Positions 1,047-43,044 of a stretch of DNA of 47,953 bases are shown here, one piece after another. The DNA comes from a virus (lineage: Duplodnaviria > Heunggongvirae > Uroviricota > Caudoviricetes). The stretch's first letter is position 1. Each line of letters begins with the position of its first letter. The translations under genes and the position numbers were made by a program. The notes beneath the pieces were generated by a model. The model was not told the DNA's origin and did not search any database. It was given only the letters and a program-made list of their open reading frames with translations. The stretch lies in the IMG/VR virus record IMGVR_UViG_2554235123_000011, one strand, 5' to 3'.

Positions 1047-1222
1047 TTACTCCCTGACAGGGTTCGTAGGCCACTCAATATCAGGTGCAGTTGATGTATC
1101 AACACGGTTCAGCAACACCCGATACTTTTTCCAGGCTTCCAGCAATGAGGTTTCTTCCTCCGTTGCAATTTCCAGATCTGCAGCATCCTGAAGCGGCGCA
1201 ATATGCTCACTGGCTACCTGCA
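1047..1222. repeat. Direct repeat copy 2 of the tfa 3' end
   Basis: See copy 1 at 1..175. Confidence 0.6.
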
Positions 1223-1631
1223 TCAGGTTGTTTTTTGTTTCTTCCGCCTCCCGGATCCGGAACAGTTTTTCTGCTTCCGTATCCTTCACCCAGGCTGTGC
1301 CGTTCCACTTCTGAAACTCCCCTTCCGGCGATAACCAGGTAACATTTTCCGGTAACGGACCGAGTTCAGAAATAAATAACTCGTCCCCTGACGCTACGTC
1401 ATAAACCGTTTTCCCCCGATGGTCTTCAACGAGATGCCACGATGCCTCATCACTGTTGAAAACAGCCACAAAGCCAGCAGGAATATCTGGTGGTGCAATA
1501 TCGGTACTGTTTGCTGGCAGACCTGTATGAGGCGGAATATATGCGTCACCTTCACCAATAAATTCATTAGTTCCGGCCAGCAGATTATAAATTTTTATGG
1601 TCCGTGCTTGTTCACTCATTCTGAATGCCAT
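1047..1631 (-). CDS. tfa: Tail fibre assembly protein Tfa (194 aa)
   Basis: Immediately downstream of stf with overlapping stop/start; conserved Tfa C-terminal domain; lambda-like position. Confidence 0.85.
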
Positions 1632-5475: not shown

Positions 5476-8400
5476 TCAGCTAATCGTGATGCCTGCAGTG
5501 GCTTTCTTCATCACAACAACCAGCAAATCGCTGATACTTGCTGTGGGATACCAGCCATTTACCCACCATGCTGATACAGAAAACTCCAGCGTCATGTGGC
5601 CGCGACCAGCAGGCATATCAATAACACCACTGTAAATCAGCGTATTATCCAGCGCGGTACGGTTATAAATTTCAGCACCGTTTTTCCGTACTATCAGGCG
5701 GCATGACGAATAAGTATCGCTGTTCTCCCGCTCATGTCTGGCACCGCTGAAAGCCACCGCCGGAATAACAATCTGCCGGTTAAACGGCTGATCGTCATAA
5801 ACCCTGACGGTAATGGTTCCTGATGGCCAACGCTCCGGTGCACGGGAGTCACGGGGGAAAGCCTTACCCACTGTTTTAACGAGATCGCCTTCAATCTGGT
5901 TTGCAGACAGTTTCCCTCTGATGACACAGTTCTCGTTAATGGTGACATTATTGAGCGTGCCGGTATTCGCCGTGATGGCTCCACTGATATCCGCATTGCG
6001 GGCTGTCAGCCTGCCATCCGGCGTCAGGGAAAACGTAGGAGGATTGCCGGATGACGTGATGCTCACCGCAAACAGTCGCTTCAGGAACACGTCGTTCATG
6101 AACAGCTGATTCCCCTGCGCCACAAACAGCGGCGTGGTGTTGCCATTCTCCGGGGTAATCATCGCGATACGGTCCGCCTGCAGCAGAATACTGCTCAGCG
6201 TCTGACCATCAACATCCTCAATCCCCGCACCAATCCCGGCCACATAGGGAATACCGTTTTTTGTTTTCTGCACCTTCAGCATATACATGGCATTCAGCTC
6301 ATTGCGCGTGTCTGACTGAACCCGCTGGATTTGCTGTATGGTCACGGCCTGGTCACCCAGCTTTTTATCCGTGGTCGAGGTAATTTCACTCCCTTTTTTA
6401 TCCACGTACTGGCGGACCTGTGCTATCTGTCGGGCGTTTTCTGACTGCCCCTGGCTGACAGTCTGTGAGATTTCACTGCTCACCCGGTCCACTTTCTGGC
6501 TCACCTGCGCGATGGCCAGTGTCTGGTCCTCATTCTTTTTCGCAACCAGCTGCGTGAGGCTGTTTTCCGCCTTCCCGATTTTCCGGGTCACTTCTGCGAT
6601 ATCCGTGTCCATCCGCTGACGGATGTCTTCTTCCAGTTGCGTGACCTCCGTACGCAGCGCTGAAGCATCAATGCGCTCTTTCAGTGCCTGGCCCAGAAGC
6701 GTCTCATCTATCAGCCCCCGGAAAATTTCCAGATACCCTTCACCATCATTGCTGGGCTGCCCGCTGGCTTCCACAAAAGCAGATTTTCCCACCAGGTTGA
6801 CGCTTCGCACGTAAAACCAGAAATCCGTCCCCGGCTTAATCCGGCTCCCCTGGACAGTCCACTGACTGCCGGTCCCCAGATAACGGGCAGATTTTTCCAC
6901 CTGTGCCGTGTTCGTGATGCGTTTTTCTGAGAACCAGAATTCAAACTGTACCGTCGGGTCATACACCGCAAGACGCGGGACCGCCGTTATCTGAAAATAC
7001 CCCGGCGTCAGCTCAATCCGCGACGGTGCTGCCGGTGCGGCAATCCGGAAGGTGGTGGTCGCAGGTTCGCCCTGCTGGCCGTAGCTGTTAATGGCCCGCA
7101 CCGTCAGGGTGTATTCCCCCAGTGGCAGGCCGCTGAAACGGTGCTCCGTGTCTGCGGTGATGGCGGTGGTCACCAGTCTGGCATCCGTTCCCTTACCACT
7201 GGTCAGGCGCAGACTGAAGCGCACGCCCTTCACCACCCGCGGCGTGTCCCATTTAGCCTGCGCCAGATACTGGCCGTCAGCTGCGCTCACCTCCACCGTC
7301 AGGTGCTGCACTGCCGGTGGGATAACGCTGTTCAGGGTGCCTGACTGCGGCTCAAAGCGGGCCCCGTTATCCACGATGGCTTCTTTTTCAGGTACGTGCT
7401 GCACCGCCGTGATGGCAAAGGTGCCGTCCGTGTTTTCCCGGATGGAGACACAGCGGAACAGGCGACGACGCAGTGACGGCAGGGAGAGTCCCCACACACC
7501 GTATGTCTCCACACCATCCGGCAGGGTGCTGACCTGTATCCGGTCAGGCGCGGGGTGTGCGGTGATGGCCACGCTCGCCGGCTTACCGCTGCCGTTAATC
7601 AGATTAACAGTGGCCGTGCCGGTCTCCGGCAGTGTCACCTCCCGGTCCAGCGTCAGGGTACGGCTGGCGGCATCGATGGACAGGACACGTCCGCCGGTCA
7701 TGGTCCCGGCATAGTCGTTATCACAGATTTCAATGATGTCACCGGGTGTGTGACGCAGCCCCTGTGACCCGAGCGTGAAATCCACCGTCTGCGTTTCCAG
7801 CAGTTCGGTCTTTATCACCCACAGCCCGGCACGGTGGGCCTGACCGCGGCTGGTACAGCCGAACGCGTCCATCTTCAGCAGGTTGCGTCCGTAGCGCAGT
7901 ATGGCTTCCGGGTCTTCCACCAGTTCCGTGGAGGTCTGCCAGCCGTTCTGCGGGTCGGTGTAATTCACCTCCACTGCCGTGTGCCGGTCCTTCAGGGCAC
8001 TGAAGCTGTAGCGGAAACCCACGCCGTTATCATCCACCACCACATCGCTGTTGGTGTACGGCCACACCACATCCGACGGACGGTCCTGAACGAACGTCAG
8101 CGTCTGGCCGTTCCATACCGGCATACAGCGCATCGCAGAGCAGAAATCACTGAGAACGTCCCACGCCTTACGCTGTTGTGCCAGGTACGCATTAAAGGTC
8201 ATCCGCGGCTCGGTCCCCCCGAAACCATCCGGGACCGTCTGGTCGCAGTACTGCCCGATGGCATACAGCGCCCACTTGTCCACATCCGCCGCCCCCAGAC
8301 GTTTTCCCATGCCGTAGCGCGGGTGAGTCAGCATGTCCCACAGGCACCAGGCCGGGTTGTTGCTGTATGCCGGTTTCAGACTGCCGTCCCAGATACCACT

Positions 8401-27416: not shown

Positions 27417-27950
27417 TTATCTGTCGATACCCCAGCACGCCAGCGCGCTCTCCTGGTCACGACGGGATACCTGACCGTAACAGTTGTTTGAACGAATACG
27501 GCAGTCTCTGCCACCGTCCTTAATCCACCAGCGAATCGCTTCGCAGGCACCTTTTCGATCACCAGCATTAATTCGTCTGTAAAACGTCGACGGGAAACAC
27601 TTACCGGGACCAATGTTGTACGGACAGAATGACGCGATCCCCGCTTTCTGGGGTTCGGTCAGCGGCACTCTGATGTTTTTCTCCACCCACGCCAGCGCTT
27701 TATCACGCTCAATGGCGTTAACCTGGTCGCATTTTTCCTTCGACAACTTCATGCCCGGAACGACAGGTTTGCCATCCACCATGATGGCACCACGGCAGAT
27801 GGTCCAGATACCTGCACCATCACGGTATGCCGTGGTGTGGTTGCCTTCCTTTTCATCCAGAAACTGGTCGAGAATGTCAGGCGCAGGCGCACCAGCGGCA
27901 ATCAGCGCCAGAACGGCAGCCGACAGGCCGTATTTGATTTTGGTGTTCAT
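27417..27950 (-). CDS. R: SAR endolysin (T4-lysozyme-type, GH24) R
   Basis: Gly/Ala-rich signal-anchor-release N-terminus YGLSAAVLALIAAGAPA; catalytic E-8aa-D-5aa-T spacing (EGNHTTAYRDGAGIWT). Confidence 0.85.
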   Translation of the reverse strand: MNTKIKYGLSAAVLALIAAGAPAPDILDQFLDEKEGNHTTAYRDGAGIWTICRGAIMVDGKPVVPGMKLSKEKCDQVNAIERDKALAWVEKNIRVPLTEPQKAGIASFCPYNIGPGKCFPSTFYRRINAGDRKGACEAIRWWIKDGGRDCRIRSNNCYGQVSRRDQESALACWGIDR

Positions 27951-27986: not shown

Positions 27987-28880
27987 CTAAATACGCACTT
28001 TAAGATAAGTCAGCCCCGGATGAAGCCAGTAAGCCGGCCCTTTTTTAAAGGGTGGAGTATTAAAATCACGAAGAAGAGCCTCCCGCACAATTGCATCCTT
28101 ATCAGCACCACTGGCCAGCGCTTCAATCTCAGCGGCTACCTGAAGATATCCCATGCAACGGCCAACGCGCTTCATCAGCCCCTGCTTTTTATTGTTCTTC
28201 AGGTAATCAATGGCAAATTCAATGAGCTCCTCACTGTGCTGGTGCGATGGAGGTGTTACTTTCCCATTTTCTGAGATGGTTATTTTCCCAGCATCACCGG
28301 ATACAACAAAGGATGGCCGGTTACACTCCCATTCCGGGTCACTGAAATTATCATTATGAATACTGAAACACTCTGCGAGATTTCTGCTCATCACTTTCCG
28401 ACAATAATCGTCAAACGCAGCAAACTGCTTTTCATCGCCAGAAGGCACCAATATCGACCATTTCTTATTCAGCTCAACGACGTAGCTCTCCAGTTTTTCA
28501 ATACGTGATTCAACATCATCTTTTTCTGACCGCAGTGTTGACGGCGGCATCTTCAGAGAACAAGTAATTCTTCCCGGTAGCTTTCCTTTGTAGGTTATCA
28601 ACACATCCTGCGCCTCTAAAATTACGGGGCGCTTTTCCGGCAACGGTTCGTTCCATTCACATAACCCGGCAGCAACATCCATGAAAAACTGCTTCGCCTG
28701 CTTTTTCGCCTCAGCTTCGTAAAACTCCAGCGTGGCACCTTCAGTACGGTCAAGACTAATCGCCACATCTGGCAACAACAGCGACGCTTGCCCGTCACCT
28801 TCCGACTTCACAGTAACAGTAACCTTATCCCCGTAATTATTTATCCCCTTAACAACCAGTTCATATTTTTTATTCATCAC
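27987..28880 (-). CDS. Hypothetical protein (297 aa) inserted between pinholin and endolysin
   Basis: Long ORF with start abutting the S stop; no recognised motif. Confidence 0.6.
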   Translation of the reverse strand: MMNKKYELVVKGINNYGDKVTVTVKSEGDGQASLLLPDVAISLDRTEGATLEFYEAEAKKQAKQFFMDVAAGLCEWNEPLPEKRPVILEAQDVLITYKGKLPGRITCSLKMPPSTLRSEKDDVESRIEKLESYVVELNKKWSILVPSGDEKQFAAFDDYCRKVMSRNLAECFSIHNDNFSDPEWECNRPSFVVSGDAGKITISENGKVTPPSHQHSEELIEFAIDYLKNNKKQGLMKRVGRCMGYLQVAAEIEALASGADKDAIVREALLRDFNTPPFKKGPAYWLHPGLTYLKVRI

Positions 28881-29097: not shown

Positions 29098-29404
29098 ACC
29101 CCGTCTCCCGTTATCCGGAAGCTGACAACAATAAAAAAGCCACCAGTTAAGTACTGATGGCTCTGATAACTCATGCAGGCGTCTCAGACGACCCACTGAC
29201 ACTACCGGTGAGTTTAACGATACCTTCCATTTGACTGGCTCACTTTTTATGATGATGCCGGTGCATTTATCTCCAGCACCAGACTTTCTATCTCAACGCC
29301 ATACGTTGCATTTTTGGTAATATCCGTCAGCGTCAGTGCATTTAGTCCCACTGCCAGACCGTCTTTTATGGCCTGGAATGCCGGGCCAGTACGATGACGT
29401 AGTA

Positions 29405-29608
29405 TCACTCCGGCTCAGTTGCACCACTGACCACCACATCACCTTCTGCTGCAATCGCCTGCATCAGGGTATAAGGGGTTATGGCCACCGGACTACCAAA
29501 CGGCTGCCAGCCCTCTTTCAGTTTATGTGTCAGCTTTTCCGCAAGATCTGACGGCGACGCCGCCCTGACAACATCATAGTGTTTAAATGCCATGGTTCTT
29601 TCCACCAT
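29405..29608 (-). CDS. Small conserved prophage protein (67 aa), possibly the N-terminal remnant of a larger gene
   Basis: ORF upstream of the holin; an overlapping downstream frame encodes a further protein-like 45-50 aa. Confidence 0.45.
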   Translation of the reverse strand: MVERTMAFKHYDVVRAASPSDLAEKLTHKLKEGWQPFGSPVAITPYTLMQAIAAEGDVVVSGATEPE

Positions 29609-29853
29609 CTGAAAAATGATTCTTTAAAATACCTGACATGTAATACAGAAAAAACACAAAACCATACCTTAAATAAAAACCTCATCATCAAGCAGATATG
29701 CATGGATAAACTACAAGACGAGATATAAACCACCCTGCATTTAAATAAACAATAAACAACATCAGAAAAATAATTCTGCTCTATGGTTTACAATCAAAAA
29801 TATCATTTATACTTTTCAGAACATCACCAGCAAGGCATAAACAAGGAAACTAA

Positions 29854-30189
29854 ATGAAGTGGATTGTGATTGATACAGTTATCCAGCCATCATGCGGAAT
29901 ATCTTTTTCAGTCATATGGAGTAAAATAAAATTAATAATCTGGTATCAATCGGATGCTTTCTTACCTCCTGAAAGTATATTTACACTGACTCACACAGGT
30001 ATCATGCTCAATAACAAAGTGCTACCTGTAACCATTTACAACGTAGTACCATTCAATAAAACATTCTGGAATTTAATCAAAAACAGCCAGGAATGCCCTA
30101 CAAATACAGATAACGTATTGAATGAATGCTTTAATAACCGTTGCACTCTGCAAATATGTCCTTATGGGCTAAAACAACAAAGTCCATAA
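29854..30189 (+). CDS. Hypothetical AT-rich ORF (111 aa) oriented against the late operon
   Basis: Low-GC ORF with AAGGA SD; promoter-like GTTTAC...TATACT upstream (about 29787..29820). Confidence 0.35.
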
Positions 30190-30544
30190 GGAGTTTACTC
30201 ACATCTGACAAAATCAATATAAACAGCCCCTCCGGAGAGGGGCTGGAGAGTGGCGCTATGTGCCATTGCATGGTGCCGGGTGCCTCCCGGTGAATTCAGT
30301 ACCAGCACCTGAATCCGCGATTATCCCATATACCTACTCGCTGATTGCCCCTCCGCACAGGGGGATTCACCATGCCAGTTTCTTTTAACAAACTCCCCGC
30401 AAACCAGACAACAGTCAACCGCCTGAATTGTGAAGTATTTAAAAATTTCTCCCGCTAACTGATACCCGGCTAACAGTCTGGCGTTTTCTTTTTCAGCAAC
30501 GGGAAAGCAACAACCACCACACCCACCAGCCGCCCATTTACCAC

Positions 30545-30571
30545 AAATAAAAAAGCCTTCAGGACTGAAGG
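30545..30571 (-). terminator. Intrinsic terminator-like hairpin overlapping the stop of the 65-aa ORF
   Basis: Stem CCTTCA/TGAAGG followed by CTTTTTTATTT on the minus strand. Confidence 0.45.
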
Positions 30572-30756
30572 TGTCTGTAACAACCAAACTGATAGTCTGC
30601 CAGACCCGCCATAACAAGCTGGGTCAGTATTAACTGGCAGCGTTCGCGTGAAAGGTAAGTATTCTGTGCAATCTCCCTGACTGTCGCCGGGTCGGTAACG
30701 CTTAATTCATTAAACACCACTCTGGCGGCTTCTGTCATATCCTGCTGTTTTAGCAT
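30559..30756 (-). CDS. Small putative winged-helix DNA-binding protein (65 aa)
   Basis: MLKQQDMTEAARVVFNELSVTDPATVREIAQNTYLSRERCQLILTQLVMAGLADYQ...; helix-turn-helix-like pattern. Confidence 0.4.
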   Translation of the reverse strand: MLKQQDMTEAARVVFNELSVTDPATVREIAQNTYLSRERCQLILTQLVMAGLADYQFGCYRHLQS

Positions 30757-30880
30757 GTCTTTTTCCCTTTTCCGGTTAACGTGACATACCAATAACTCTT
30801 GTCGAAAAAGCCGGCAAGCTGAAAGACCCGTATTCGCAACCACCAGCGCGTTTACTGTACTGACGCGATTTTCGGACATA

Positions 30881-30910
30881 AAAAAAACCACCTGGCGGTG
30901 GTTTTTTCTT
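30881..30910. terminator. Bidirectional intrinsic terminator-like hairpin about 60 nt downstream of Q
   Basis: Stem ACCACC/GGTGGT with A-run upstream and T-run downstream. Confidence 0.5.
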
Positions 30911-30968
30911 ACTTTGCCATCACGTACAAAATCGGCAAAATATCAGATTTATACGAAACATACGCGAT

Positions 30969-31658
30969 TTAATTGACTTTTGCAATATCTCGTCGTGAAA
31001 AGGTCGCTTTTTGTTGCGCTCTTATTTTCACGGAGCAAATCAAGGATTCTCTATCGAGGCGCTTAAAAATATCGCACATCTCACGCCAGTAGTTCGCATA
31101 ATTATGGCTCCAGTTATCAGGCTTAACTCCACACAGTCTGGCAAGCTCCTGTCTCTGGTAGACCTCACACCCGGTAACCCATCCTCTGACATCCTGTGCC
31201 GCCAGCCAGATCAACTTCTTCACACGCTCCAGCGTTTTCACTGCAATTTTTCTGGAGCCGGACTGAGTTTTAAATTCACTCCACCCCCACTGCGTTATCG
31301 CGATCTGATGCTCCCAGCAAATGTTTCCGCCATAACACCACAACAACCACGCCTTCTGATGTTCTTCCAGTTCCAGAACAGCACGCCGCCACGATGATGT
31401 TGCAAACTCAACAGGACTGACCAGCGCAATTGATGAGCCTTTCGCCAGTGATTGTTTACCCTGGATCGGGGGATTATCCCGCGTGATCATTTTTCCGGTT
31501 ACCTCATCGCGGTAACGAATTTTTTTGCGTCTGTAACGCCCTGTATCGAACAGGGCATTTTCCTGCCAGGCTTCCAGCTGGCATTTTGTCGACCCACTGA
31601 GATCTGCAGTGGCAATCATGAGTTGCTCACGAACAAACTGTAAATACTGGTTATTCAT
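30969..31658 (-). CDS. Late-gene antiterminator Q (~229 aa)
   Basis: Position between rusA and the lysis cassette; not lambda-Q-like in sequence; SD GAGGTGGG before ATG. Confidence 0.6.
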   Translation of the reverse strand: MNNQYLQFVREQLMIATADLSGSTKCQLEAWQENALFDTGRYRRKKIRYRDEVTGKMITRDNPPIQGKQSLAKGSSIALVSPVEFATSSWRRAVLELEEHQKAWLLWCYGGNICWEHQIAITQWGWSEFKTQSGSRKIAVKTLERVKKLIWLAAQDVRGWVTGCEVYQRQELARLCGVKPDNWSHNYANYWREMCDIFKRLDRESLICSVKIRAQQKATFSRRDIAKVN

Positions 31659-32019
31659 GCACACCCACCTCTGTAATTCTTATCTCCAGCCGTCCACCAG
31701 ATACTGGCTGGCCACGTACAATATTGATTTCATCAAACTGCTCATCGTCCATTAACAACCCCGCGTGCGTCAGCGCATCCAGTGGTGCTTTCAGAATATT
31801 GTCCAGGTCACGACGACGCTTATCCGGTGGCTCTGCAATAATTTTTATTGCCAGCCGTCCGGACAGGCTTAATTTCAGTCGCTGCTGGCGAACAATAAGC
31901 GCCACTGCCCGGCGATAACGCTCCCCGGCTTTTGATACAAAATATGTGCTGCCACGGCGTCGCCAGTAAGTGTTCACCGTCGGCGAGTAAGGCAAAACAA
32001 ATTCTATGCGTTCGGTCAT
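31651..32019 (-). CDS. rusA: Holliday junction resolvase RusA (122 aa)
   Basis: ...PPDKRRRDLDNILKAPLDALTHAGLLMDDEQ...GGRLEIRITE matches the RusA catalytic region. Confidence 0.9.
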   Translation of the reverse strand: MTERIEFVLPYSPTVNTYWRRRGSTYFVSKAGERYRRAVALIVRQQRLKLSLSGRLAIKIIAEPPDKRRRDLDNILKAPLDALTHAGLLMDDEQFDEINIVRGQPVSGGRLEIRITEVGVHE

Positions 32020-33078
32020 TTATGCTTTCCACTTCAGAACACCCGAATTTCTCGCGTGCATTAAAAAACGAATCAGCAACAACAACTGACTACCGTGTTT
32101 TTCTTCAAAATCTTTTACCCCGGCGTGTAGTTCGTTATGGCATTTACGACACAGCGGAATAACAAACAAATCGTCAGCCTTTGTTCCCATCCCTCCCAGT
32201 CCATGACCAATGATGTGATGCGGATCATCTGCCTGATTGCCACACGTCATGCATTTCTGCGTTTTTACCCAGCGCGTGTATACAGGCATCTCTTCCCGTT
32301 GTGGTTTCTGGCGCTGGAGATACTGAGCCGGAGATTCCGGATCAACGGCAATGCTGACCACCGTCTTTTCCTGTGGTGGGTTCTGTTGCTGGTGGGCGTG
32401 AGGCAGCGGCGCAAGATTTTTTGTGCGCTGTTTCAGTATGCTGGTGGCGGTCTGCTCTCCCGGTACGATGTCGCTTTCACGGTACATTGAGCGGATTTTT
32501 TCCGCACGCAACCCCAGCGAACGACGTAATACCGCTTCCGGTAGCGCGTCCGCCACCTGATTGCGGACCGCCCACCAGGATAATTCAGCCAGCGATAATT
32601 CCCGTTCCTGCGAGCCATTCATTGCATGGCGTATGACGTCAATCATCCATGCAGACAGGTTTTGGTGAGCAAGTTGCCCGAGTGATTCGGAGGTCTGGTC
32701 GCGCAGCTGGTTGTCGCAGTGCCAGCACAACACCATTGCGCCGGTACCATAACGGTGAATGACGGTTTCACTGTGGTGATAATCGCCGTGTGGCCACTGG
32801 CAGGATTTAACATGGCGCAGTAACCAGTCAGACAATGCGCCAGCGCCACCAGCAGCACGAATCACTCGTTCGTCGCTGAAAAATGGCAGTAATGATTTAT
32901 CCTCCGCCAGCGGCTGGCGAACGGCAGGAACGACCCCGGACGACAGATTACGCATGCTTTTCGGTTCCGGCTCCACCAGTACCCGGGTATTGTGGAATAC
33001 CGGCATGGATTCACGGCCCGGTTTTAGCACCACCAGCCCAAGTTCCGGTACCAGAACAGGTCGAAGTAATACCCGCAC
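32020..33078 (-). CDS. DUF968-like nin-region protein with C-terminal HNH-like Cys/His motif (352 aa)
   Basis: C-terminal CMTCGNQADDPHHIIGHGLGG...PLCRKCHNELH; resembles YdfU-type prophage proteins. Confidence 0.65.
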   Translation of the reverse strand: MRVLLRPVLVPELGLVVLKPGRESMPVFHNTRVLVEPEPKSMRNLSSGVVPAVRQPLAEDKSLLPFFSDERVIRAAGGAGALSDWLLRHVKSCQWPHGDYHHSETVIHRYGTGAMVLCWHCDNQLRDQTSESLGQLAHQNLSAWMIDVIRHAMNGSQERELSLAELSWWAVRNQVADALPEAVLRRSLGLRAEKIRSMYRESDIVPGEQTATSILKQRTKNLAPLPHAHQQQNPPQEKTVVSIAVDPESPAQYLQRQKPQREEMPVYTRWVKTQKCMTCGNQADDPHHIIGHGLGGMGTKADDLFVIPLCRKCHNELHAGVKDFEEKHGSQLLLLIRFLMHARNSGVLKWKA

Positions 33079-33892: not shown

Positions 33893-34048
33893 TTACTCCT
33901 CAGGTTCGTAAGCTGTGAAGACAGCGACCTCCGTCTGGCCGGTTCGGATTCGTACCTCGCAGAGGTCTTTCCTCGTTACCAGTGCCGTCACTATGACGGT
34001 TAAACAGATGACGATCAGGGCGATTAACATCGCCTTTTGCTGCTTCAT
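33893..34048 (-). CDS. hokD: Hok/Gef-family type I toxin (51 aa)
   Basis: MKQQKAMLIALIVICLTVIVTALVTRKDLCEVRIRTGQTEVAVFTAYEPEE, as remembered for HokD/RelF. Confidence 0.85.
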   Translation of the reverse strand: MKQQKAMLIALIVICLTVIVTALVTRKDLCEVRIRTGQTEVAVFTAYEPEE

Positions 34049-34309
34049 AGCCTGCTTCTCCTTGACCTTTCGGCCCGTAAGAGGCTAACCTACATGTGTC
34101 TAGCATGAAATATGGCCTCAGATTAATGTTAAGCGTCTTGCAGGACGCGTAATGTTAACTGGGGCTTTTCTCTATCTGCCTTTTGGTGTTCATGCCTGAG
34201 ACAGATAGCCTCAAGCACCCGCAGTTATTCTACTTAACTAAGATTTCCCCGCAAACCGTTTTTGTCCGGCACAGTAAATATCCAACTAAACCAATGGCGT
34301 TCGCTGTAT

Positions 34310-42217: not shown

Positions 42218-42516
42218 TTTATTCACAGGTGAGGTAGAGTGCGTGCGCCGGACACGGATAAGAATCCGGCACTGACAGTTTACTAAAAAGGATATATCCC
42301 TGAAAAGTCAGGGCATAACACGAAAGCGCCCGGCGAAGTTAGTCTCTCTGTATAGGTCGTCGTTAAATTTAATTCGATCGTGCGCTTCCGGTTGTGGCAA
42401 TCCGCGAAATGGCGCGGCGGTAAGTATGGCTGGGGTTTCCTCCATTGCTCCAGAAAATGCACCGGGTTGTCAGGTTGACCATACGCTTAAGTGACAGCCC
42501 CGCCACAATACCCATG

Positions 42517-42569
42517 TGTAGTCTTTGGTGGCATCAGTTCTACTCCGTGACTGCTCTGCCACCCTTTTT
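42517..42569 (+). ncRNA. dicF: DicF small RNA homologue
   Basis: tttggtggcatcagttctactccgtgactgctctgccacccttttt: conserved core TACTCCGTGACTGCTCTGCC and terminal hairpin GGTGGC/GCCACC plus T5. Confidence 0.8.
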
Positions 42570-42852
42570 AAAGTGAATTTTGTGATGCGGTGAATGCGGC
42601 TAAGCGCACGCGGAACAGTTAAAACCAAAAACAGTGTTATGGGTGGATTCTCTGTATCCGGCGTTAATTGTTAACTGGTTAACGTCACCTGGAGGCACCA
42701 GGCACCGCATCAACAAAGTTCACTTCGGTGATGAAAGGTAAGAGAAAATGTTGAATGTAGCTATTGAAAACCAGAACGGGTGGAATTATAGTGCACCTGC
42801 ACCTCATAAAACGGGTGCCGGGCGTGGAAACCCGGAATTCAATCAAGCGCAT

Positions 42853-42877
42853 AACCGCGCTCAGGCGGTTTTTTTAT
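42853..42877 (+). terminator. Intrinsic terminator-like hairpin between DicF and the Rha-like gene
   Basis: AACCGC-gctcag-GCGGTT followed by TTTTTTT. Confidence 0.45.
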
Positions 42878-43044
42878 GCGTCAAGCACAGCCACATTCAG
42901 ATTATGGTGGGGCGTGCAGGGCAGCTGCAAGGCTGGCCGGATTCTTGGTTGACCGGTATTTCCACCCCTGTACGCCTCACCACCCTTATGGTCGTGGAAA
43001 ACCTTGGTGGTGAGTTATTAATACTCAACCAAGAGGCTGCCATT

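Follow-up and report, generated by a model that had tools for sequence, protein, structure and literature searches.

In phage 82, transcription from the late promoter PR' pauses early: the polymerase stops at U +25, the features described being a -10-like element of the extended type, GCC as discriminator at +15 to +17 and an AT-rich region (PMC5001585), and the element bound by the antiterminator Q lies within -31 to +30 of the same promoter (PMC4914094). A second described system, the RssB anti-adaptor IraL of Escherichia coli CFT073, is encoded on the 'potB island' and is 58.9% identical to IraM; it co-purifies with RssB, contacts only the RssB N-terminal domain, and stabilizes RpoS, roughly doubling its half-life in exponential phase (PMC4045071). 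Its gene is transcribed from its own sigma-70 promoter without added stress, as mapped by rapid amplification of 5' cDNA ends (5' RACE) in CFT073 during exponential growth (PMC4045071), and later work found iraL expression to be higher when fur is mutated and upon shifting to 37 °C. A third, the small RNA (sRNA) STnc100, lies 75 nt downstream of stx2B, where it overlaps the Hfq-bound sRNA EcOnc27/sRNA103, and is related to PasD according to the literature. Here, we analyzed a Caudoviricetes sequence of 47,953 nucleotides (IMG/VR record IMGVR_UViG_2554235123_000011; the whole of this stretch is called the window), and in particular its gap between the antiterminator gene Q and the pinholin gene S, in which relatives of all these systems are found.

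We conclude that this interval very probably represents a lambdoid prophage's variable late-leader region, comprising a phage-82-type (Q82-type) switch, a conserved gene for a 65-amino-acid (aa) protein, STnc100, iraL and a remnant of nanS-p. Nearly every part of this content is already known: IraL was described in 2014, STnc100 is covered by Rfam and by the literature on enterohaemorrhagic E. coli (EHEC), and both the Q82-type switch and the NanS-p remnant have precedents. An earlier reading of this DNA, made from the letters and their open reading frames (ORFs) and referred to here as the sequence-only reading, had described a Q-S gap of about 1.9 kb with an AT-rich stretch, two ORFs and two hairpins; all of these were found where it had placed them. 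The Q stop (30969) and the pinholin start (29097) are 1871 nt apart, and GC content falls to 0.30-0.35 across 29600-30200 vs ~0.5 on either side. Terminator-like sites are frequent between 28800 and 31800 (n = 11, vs 2.6 +/- 1.6 in shuffled sequences), and a consensus scan for promoter-like sites showed no enrichment (4 vs 4.5). ARAGORN detected no tRNA in the whole window and no tmRNA in the gap, and Rfam gave no tRNA match, in agreement with that reading; the ORF list contains no stx gene between Q and S. Coordinates of all features are collected in Table 1.

iraL and STnc100

The 111-aa ORF, which the sequence-only reading had noted on the strand opposite the phage genes, encodes a protein identical to CFT073 IraL (WP_000871291.1 / c1429) at 111/111 residues. 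The NCBIfam model NF007393 covers residues 1-110 of 111 with 162 bits (cut-off 121), phrog_4407 matches with 244 bits, and residues 1-78 match the IraM structure in the Protein Data Bank (PDB 8twd) with E = 9e-32. The published CFT073 iraL 5'-RACE sequence (ACATCACCAGCAAGGCATAAACAAGGAAAC...) occurs once in the window, matching 30/30 nt at 29821-29850, and the 171 nt upstream of the gene are 98% identical to CFT073, with 3 differences, none of them in the hexamers. The ORF had been credited with promoter-like elements of its own; a start sequence mapped by RACE at 29821 and intact TTTACA/TATACT hexamers indicate that these probably constitute a working promoter. It had also been proposed to be cargo expressed in the lysogen. 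Since the ORF is identical to the characterized IraL, whose sigma-70 promoter was RACE-mapped in an exponentially growing CFT073 lysogen, that proposal was right, and the gene turns out to have been characterized already.

The Prokaryotic Genome Annotation Pipeline (PGAP) and NCBIfam both name this ORF 'anti-adapter protein IraM', and its product is 62% identical to K-12 IraM; one might therefore take it for the PhoP-controlled IraM of Mg2+ starvation and not for IraL. We find this scarcely credible: the protein is 100% identical to IraL against 62% for IraM, the DNA preceding the gene shares 98% identity with its CFT073 iraL counterpart and gave no alignment with the upstream region of K-12 iraM, and, according to the literature, IraL and IraM contact RssB differently and are expressed under different conditions. 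We therefore treat the ORF as iraL. RssB binding and RpoS stabilization, shown for the identical protein in CFT073 and Shigella sonnei (PMC4045071), are predicted from this identity for the window protein as well: IraL would keep RssB from delivering RpoS to ClpXP, and RpoS would be stabilized in exponential growth.

Some features of the family are worth recording beside this assignment. Four C-terminal cysteines between residues 81 and 102 (QECP...C....C....CPYG) are common to IraL, K-12 IraM and the Stx2a-phage homologue; this tail lies outside the part matched to 8twd (1-78) and may be metal-binding. K-12 iraM itself (6414-7004 of our locus L003) is situated just outside the annotated e14 boundary, adjoining the icdC pseudogene. 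The iraL promoter of phage vB_EcoS-640R1 reads TTTATA instead of the -35-like TTTACA, which may correspond to a -35 point mutation that has been reported in strain JJ1886 for its second copy of iraL.

STnc100 falls within the interval that the sequence-only reading discussed and was overlooked there. The match to Rfam RF02076 spans model positions 1-206 and scores 132.4 bits vs a gathering score of 47 (E = 3e-30). The 3' end of the RNA lies 25 nt from the iraL stop, the two genes being convergent, and the same neighborhood recurs elsewhere: CFT073, phage vB_EcoS-640R1 and a Stx2a phage each have STnc100 adjoining iraL or an iraM-like gene, and it is not found beside K-12 iraM. An alignment of five STnc100 copies revealed a conserved block from TCACAATTCAG onward, together with a TTGACN motif. 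We predict that the RNA exists here as a discrete, Hfq-associated species, Hfq binding having been reported for the EHEC counterpart. In vB_EcoS-640R1, two tandem STnc100 copies stand upstream of iraL (L009 2624-2817 and 3093-3281). PGAP annotates a 'partial hypothetical' ORF at 30260-30388 (+), which we judged spurious because it lies antisense inside STnc100.

The predicted late promoter and terminator downstream of Q

The Q protein of the window matches Pfam PF06323 at 276 bits (cut-off 25) and is 66% identical to phage 82 Q across all 229 aa without gaps; genomes with identical DNA carry the annotation antitermination protein Q. No relative of solved structure was found by sequence, whether a single sequence or a profile was used. 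We aligned the 3' end of Q and the downstream DNA from five Q82-family loci, among them one from a Klebsiella prophage, with Q identity as low as 29%. The -35 and -10 hexamers of PR' are kept across all five, separated by a variable spacer, and the -10 reads TATATT or GATATT in the relatives and TATGTT in the window. The predicted start, A30950, lies 7 nt past the -10, which agrees with the numbering of the 82-type pause element downstream.

Compared by its described features, the window PR' shows each element of the published 82 PR' pause at the expected spacing. The 40-nt pause block is identical in three E. coli loci although their Q genes are only ~84% identical, and its core, TGATATTYTGCC, is kept even in the Klebsiella locus with the 29%-identical Q, forming an invariant island amid diverged sequence. 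The sequence-only reading had considered a late promoter impossible to place confidently. Because hexamers and pause block are conserved amid divergence and carry the features published for phage 82, PR' can now be placed with good confidence.

The hairpin about 60 nt after Q, likewise noted in that reading, has its stem at 30907-30882, starts 62 nt past Q and is followed by T-runs on both strands. We assign it as the putative tR' of a phage-82-type late promoter. In relatives the stem varies in sequence yet still pairs (CCACC/GGTGG here, CCCGC/GCGGG in 689R5). The leader running from 30950 to ~30881 is a predicted RNA of ~70 nt with two hairpins, of which the second is the terminator; folding of a 73-nt leader ending in tR' gave -27 kcal/mol with z = -5.5. 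Rfam matches at this hairpin, to STnc370 (35.9 bits, gathering score 54), Phe_leader (28.3, 55) and isrK (19.4, 50), were rejected because they fall below the gathering score and are driven by the terminator.

By the Q82 mechanism, constitutive transcription from PR' in a lysogen would stop at tR' and yield the ~70-nt leader, and after induction Q would load on polymerase paused at +25. Four hairpins lie in the path of late transcription: tR', the weak hairpin at 30571-30556, the STnc100 terminator and the pre-S hairpin at 29164-29136. The Q-modified polymerase would cross all of them to reach the lysis and morphogenesis genes. In doing so it would transcribe iraL in antisense, which would oppose iraL expression after induction.

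A more ambitious interpretation can be built on the leader. In Stx phages, the RNA StxS arises from a PR' transcript that ends at tR' in the lysogen (PMC7547250), and the window leader may similarly be a constitutive, Hfq-type, trans-acting sRNA; with STnc100 and IraL it would then make up three independent lysogen-expressed host regulators, a stress-physiology island and the conserved backbone that receives stx2AB in Stx2a phages. We regard this as quite unlikely. StxS-like pairing of the leader with the 5' untranslated region (UTR) of K-12 rpoS was no better than that of shuffled leaders, which paired equally well or better in 24% of shuffles for the activating region and in 7% for the whole UTR. 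The multicopy prophage sRNA HnrS was also considered as an identity for the leader; it is essentially limited to EHEC and enteropathogenic E. coli, and was not used.

The 65-aa gene and the remnants around it

The first ORF after tR', which the sequence-only reading had described as a 65-aa ORF with a winged-helix-like pattern, has 274 homologues in Escherichia, Shigella, Salmonella, Klebsiella, Citrobacter and Buttiauxella, typically of 63-65 aa, and matches phrog_331 at 124 bits. Against the Salmonella copy, the ratio of nonsynonymous to synonymous substitution rates (dN/dS) is 0.06-0.07 at dS ~1.2-1.3; the Klebsiella protein is 76% identical with saturated synonymous sites; and the ratio is 0.28 against a close Stx2-phage copy, on only 11 differences. 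Judging from the Salmonella and Klebsiella patterns, the ORF is a real gene under purifying selection. A longer, 110-aa reading from GTG 30891 was rejected, as it would cross tR' and cross-genus conservation begins at MLKQQDM.

The winged-helix label itself held up in part. Many homologues bear the name 'TrmB family transcriptional regulator', and all sequence and fold matches point to winged-helix proteins, but none of them is significant. The Pfam families HTH_24, DprA_WH and MarR_2 each scored below their own cut-off, and neither a single-sequence nor a profile search gave a PDB sequence match. The AlphaFold2 model (pLDDT 63, pTM 0.41) contains three helices and no confident wing, and its top Foldseek matches are all winged-helix proteins (Z-alpha, OhrR, IclR, DtxR) at E >= 0.8.

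Comparison among loci suggests where this gene belongs. In Stx2a phages, in phage 1720a-02 and in prophages of Klebsiella and Salmonella, where the Q genes are of three different types, tR' is followed directly by this gene, and in 4/4 other loci inspected an N6_N4 DNA methyltransferase gene (N6_N4_Mtase) follows ~150 nt downstream; this gene is absent from the window. The most economical reading is that the 65-aa gene would open the late transcript that depends on Q, and that it once had a methyltransferase partner. It could instead be insulated cargo expressed in the lysogen from a promoter of its own, for example a regulator of host or prophage, and certain observations fit: it is under strong purifying selection, terminators flank it on both sides, and a 19-nt motif that could be a promoter or operator, AGAGTTATYKGTRTGTCAY, stands ~35 nt 5' of its start and is common to the copies from E. 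coli, Stx2 phages, Salmonella and Klebsiella, although the Klebsiella leader is otherwise different. The second of those terminators, in which the sequence-only reading had placed the stop of the ORF, does hold the TGA in its loop (30571-30556, then T6), but it is weak (-6.8 kcal/mol, z = -2.2) and, though found in the E. coli and Stx2-phage copies, is absent from the Klebsiella and Salmonella copies. Moreover, a scan of the minus strand between tR' and the ORF returned no sigma-70-like promoter, the candidate hexamers are poor, and in every locus examined the gene has the late-operon orientation directly after tR'. We thus consider independent expression unlikely, though a possibility of some substance, and prefer the position as first late gene. 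As a separate observation, the motif AGAGTTATTGGTATGTCA in the segment 30757-30800 (-), ~35 nt 5' of the 65-aa ORF, recurs in homologous loci: E. coli, Stx2 phages, Salmonella and Klebsiella all have it, though the surrounding Klebsiella leader is unrelated, and it could be an operator or promoter.

The loss of the partner can be traced to a mosaic junction, where homology to the winged-helix module of Stx2a phages ends and homology to the CFT073 prophage begins. The two overlap within a shared motif, GGCGGCTGGTGGGTGT, which in Stx2a phages, Klebsiella and Salmonella runs into a hairpin and then the N6_N4_Mtase gene. Recombination at this point would have orphaned the 65-aa gene, normally the upstream member of a two-gene winged-helix-methyltransferase module. 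Its product may serve specifically to assist or control a DNA methyltransferase of the phage late operon, a pairing that appears undescribed. Beyond the junction, the DUF3927 remnant corresponds to a 43-aa copy in CFT073, the homology of the window beginning inside that ORF.

The spacer between the 65-aa and methyltransferase genes carries a motif of its own, AAATGGGCGGCTGGTGGGTGTT...CACC..CCAGCCAT..CTCATG, shared by the Stx2a-phage, Klebsiella and Salmonella loci (L006 4846-4997, L010 4193-4342, L013 4193-4343) and having its window counterpart at 30519-30545. Pairing between its arms is possible (GGCTGGTGGGTG with CACCC..CCAGCC), the loci differing slightly, and the window is recombined in the 5' arm. 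In RNA form, this motif may act as a conserved hairpin or leader that controls the methyltransferase.

The two ORFs preceding the holin, also overlooked in the sequence-only reading, match opposite ends of phrog_143 (634 positions): the 67-aa ORF corresponds to 1-58 and the 53-aa ORF to 582-632. The first 53 aa of the former are 94% identical to the YjhS/NanS-p protein of Stx2a phages, Pfam DUF1737 matches with 62 bits, and PGAP flags the region as a pseudogene. On this comparison, the two ORFs are what is left, at the N and C termini, of nanS-p, the gene for a 9-O-acetyl-sialic-acid esterase, after an internal deletion.

Such fragments raise the question of whether the whole Q-S gap might be a decaying, non-functional remnant whose ORFs are no longer expressed or selected, an outcome that the sequence-only reading had named as one that would refute it. 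The scenario applies to nanS-p, cut down to its two ends, and to the truncated DUF3927 gene, and the missing methyltransferase partner and the dN/dS of 0.28 against the close Stx2-phage copy could be counted in its favor; it does not apply to the 111-aa and 65-aa ORFs. iraL is intact, identical to a functional allele and unchanged in its promoter hexamers; STnc100 covers the whole of its model with a score well in excess of the gathering threshold; the pause block of PR' does not vary; and the arrangement recurs elsewhere. By megablast, 185/5426 complete E. coli genomes contain at least 80% of 29200-31000, many at 100%, and the same arrangement is present in PhiR5_1 and the vB_EcoS series, which are phages obtained as virions or by induction. 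General decay is thus very unlikely.

Several points nevertheless weigh against a fully functional late-leader region as we describe it. The five-copy alignment offers no convincing -10 for a promoter of STnc100 itself, and the STnc100 hairpin lacks a T-run on the plus strand, that is, in the direction of iraL. No winged-helix family model is significant for the 65-aa protein, the best being PF01978 (TrmB) with 19.4 bits vs a cut-off of 25.6, and the window allele is altered at two nearly invariant positions, G27R and R62H, so that it may be under relaxed constraint, as the decay scenario would have it. Finally, the PR' start, the pause, read-through by Q and the 70-nt leader are all inferred from the DNA and from the behavior of phage 82.

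The gap lies among phage genes on the minus strand: DUF968, RusA and Q precede it, and the S21-type pinholin, a 297-aa DUF1327 protein and lysozyme follow (Table 1). The 297-aa ORF in the interval between pinholin and endolysin matches 296/296 positions of phrog_1085 (E = 8e-190), with DUF1327 at its N terminus; for genomes of identical DNA, PGAP shows only a partial 'YdfR family' pseudogene at this place. The ORF resembles a complete gene, extended in length, that was inserted into the lysis cassette. Elsewhere in the window, Rfam returned gathering-level matches on the plus strand of the early-left region (DicF, 42513-42564; isrK, 42799-42875; C4 antisense RNA, 42900-42987). The antitoxin RNA sok at 34046-34220 (-), with 113.5 bits, implies a hok/sok module upstream of the DUF968-RusA-Q block, and a match to the RNA family IS009 at 1090-1288 (-), with 225 bits, lies near the tail-fibre end.

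Table 1 Features of the Q-S gap and adjoining genes in the window
Feature	Position	Strand	Details
DUF968 gene	32020-33078	-	
RusA gene	31651-32019	-	
Q antiterminator, phage-82 type, 229 aa	30969-31658	-	Counted from the PGAP ATG; mechanical ORF begins at GTG 31664
Late promoter PR' (predicted)	30957-30985	-	-35 TTGCAA 30985-30980; 17-nt spacer; -10 TATGTT 30962-30957
Initial transcribed region with sigma-70-dependent pause element (predicted)	30926-30950	-	
Pause element, TG	30945-30944	-	+6/+7
Pause element, -10-like TATTTT	30942-30937	-	+9 to +14
Pause element, GCC	30936-30934	-	+15 to +17
Pause element, T after AT-rich tract	30926	-	+25
Putative tR', intrinsic terminator of the PR' leader	30880-30907	-	Terminator scan and fold
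65-aa conserved small protein, first ORF after tR'	30559-30756	-	NCBI name 'TrmB family transcriptional regulator'
Weak hairpin and T6 holding the stop of the 65-aa ORF	30550-30571	-	
Mosaic junction	30519-30530		Stx2a-phage homology (winged-helix module) ends at 30519; CFT073-prophage homology begins at 30530
DUF3927 small-ORF remnant, 24 codons	30470-30544	-	5' end truncated; PGAP in a genome with identical DNA
STnc100 sRNA (EcOnc27/sRNA103 region of EHEC), full length	30215-30404	-	Terminator hairpin 30245-30224
iraL, RssB anti-adaptor, 111 aa	29854-30189	+	AT-rich DNA; convergent with STnc100
iraL promoter	29787-29821	+	-35-like TTTACA 29787-29792; -10 TATACT 29808-29813; start A29821
nanS-p remnant	29247-29608	-	67-aa ORF 29405-29608 and 53-aa ORF 29247-29408
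Terminator-like hairpin between nanS-p remnant and pinholin	29136-29164	-	12 pairs and T-run
S21-type pinholin, 71 aa	28882-29097	-	Met1/Met4 dual start; PF04971 112.8 bits; PGAP class II holin
297-aa DUF1327 protein	27987-28880	-	
Lysozyme	27417-27950	-	

Comparison with known systems

The sequence-only reading had placed the Q-S gap at a hotspot for morons, and the relatives agree. Stx2a phages and relatives with the same Q family hold differing contents between Q and S: in the latter group, 689R5 has three tRNAs and then S, PPompW has tRNAs and an insertion sequence (IS) element, and PhiR47_2 has essentially nothing. The CFT073 counterpart belongs to a lambdoid prophage between potC and potB (phi-potB), of which the window is a mosaic relative, with 31.7 of 48 kb at 85-98% identity.

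A colinear arrangement occurs in Stx2a phages. Positions 30905-30519 of the window share 92-93% identity with the stretch that immediately follows Q in these phages, and positions 30433-29436 are colinear at 70% identity with phage LC567829, where the segment begins just after stx2B and runs through an iraM-like gene to nanS-p. Between the same flanking modules, Stx2a phages have the methylase, tRNAs and stx2AB. From the colinearity at both flanks, the gap looks like a Stx2a-type Q-S region without the methylase, the tRNAs, stx2AB and the body of nanS-p, joined to a Q82-type switch.

The value of these results is mainly one of annotation. The gene that pipelines name 'IraM' in this setting is IraL, which is encoded by prophages and increases RpoS in uropathogenic E. 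coli and Shigella during growth. iraL and STnc100 travel together in the Q-S gap of lambdoid prophages with at least three Q types, and in Stx2a phages a unit of an iraL-type gene and STnc100 directly follows stx2B; the toxin genes are therefore flanked by a pre-existing regulatory cargo module, not by one specific to the toxin. Current understanding is otherwise unchanged, the 65-aa gene with its usual methyltransferase partner being the only broadly distributed element here that is uncharacterized.

Compared with phage 82, the window has a Q that is related over its full length and pause features correctly spaced from the predicted start, but its Q/PR' pair is a different allele. The leader resembles StxS in position and logic, namely a constitutive PR' transcript ended at tR' in the lysogen and a two-hairpin RNA with a U-tail; in contrast, no sequence relationship was found, and the leader would be a primary RNA of ~70 nt, compared with a StxS transcript of 258 nt that is trimmed by processing to 74 nt. 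Like STnc100/EcOnc27/sRNA103 of Stx2 phages, the window RNA is full-length with its terminator, and its neighbors are a convergent iraM-like gene and then nanS-p. It differs from the Stx2a copy in sequence (~70% identity) and in what precedes it, which is stx2AB there and the 65-aa gene with the DUF3927 remnant here. The stx/tRNA moron cassette of Stx phages is itself missing, as the window has neither tRNA nor stx and retains only the flanking modules of the Stx2a arrangement. Relative to the NanS-p (YjhS-like) prophage esterases, the N-terminal DUF1737 and the C-terminal 50 residues are kept at the same position before the holin, but ~520 internal codons including the catalytic part are gone, and no full-length esterase is encoded.

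For iraL, K-12 IraM (b1160; PDB 8twd) is a member of the same family with a conserved N-terminal domain and a Cys-rich C-terminal tail, but it differs in its regulatory region, in having no adjacent STnc100, and in its published RssB interaction pattern and inducing condition. The closest system is CFT073 IraL (c1429; Hryckowian et al. 2014, PMC4045071), with an identical protein, the same promoter and mapped start sequence, and a location in the Q-S gap of a related prophage beside STnc100 and a nanS-p remnant. The CFT073 gene is distinguished by three substitutions in the 171 nt upstream and by what lies further upstream: another Q type, IS200C and three tRNAs in CFT073, and a Q82-type Q with the 65-aa gene in the window.

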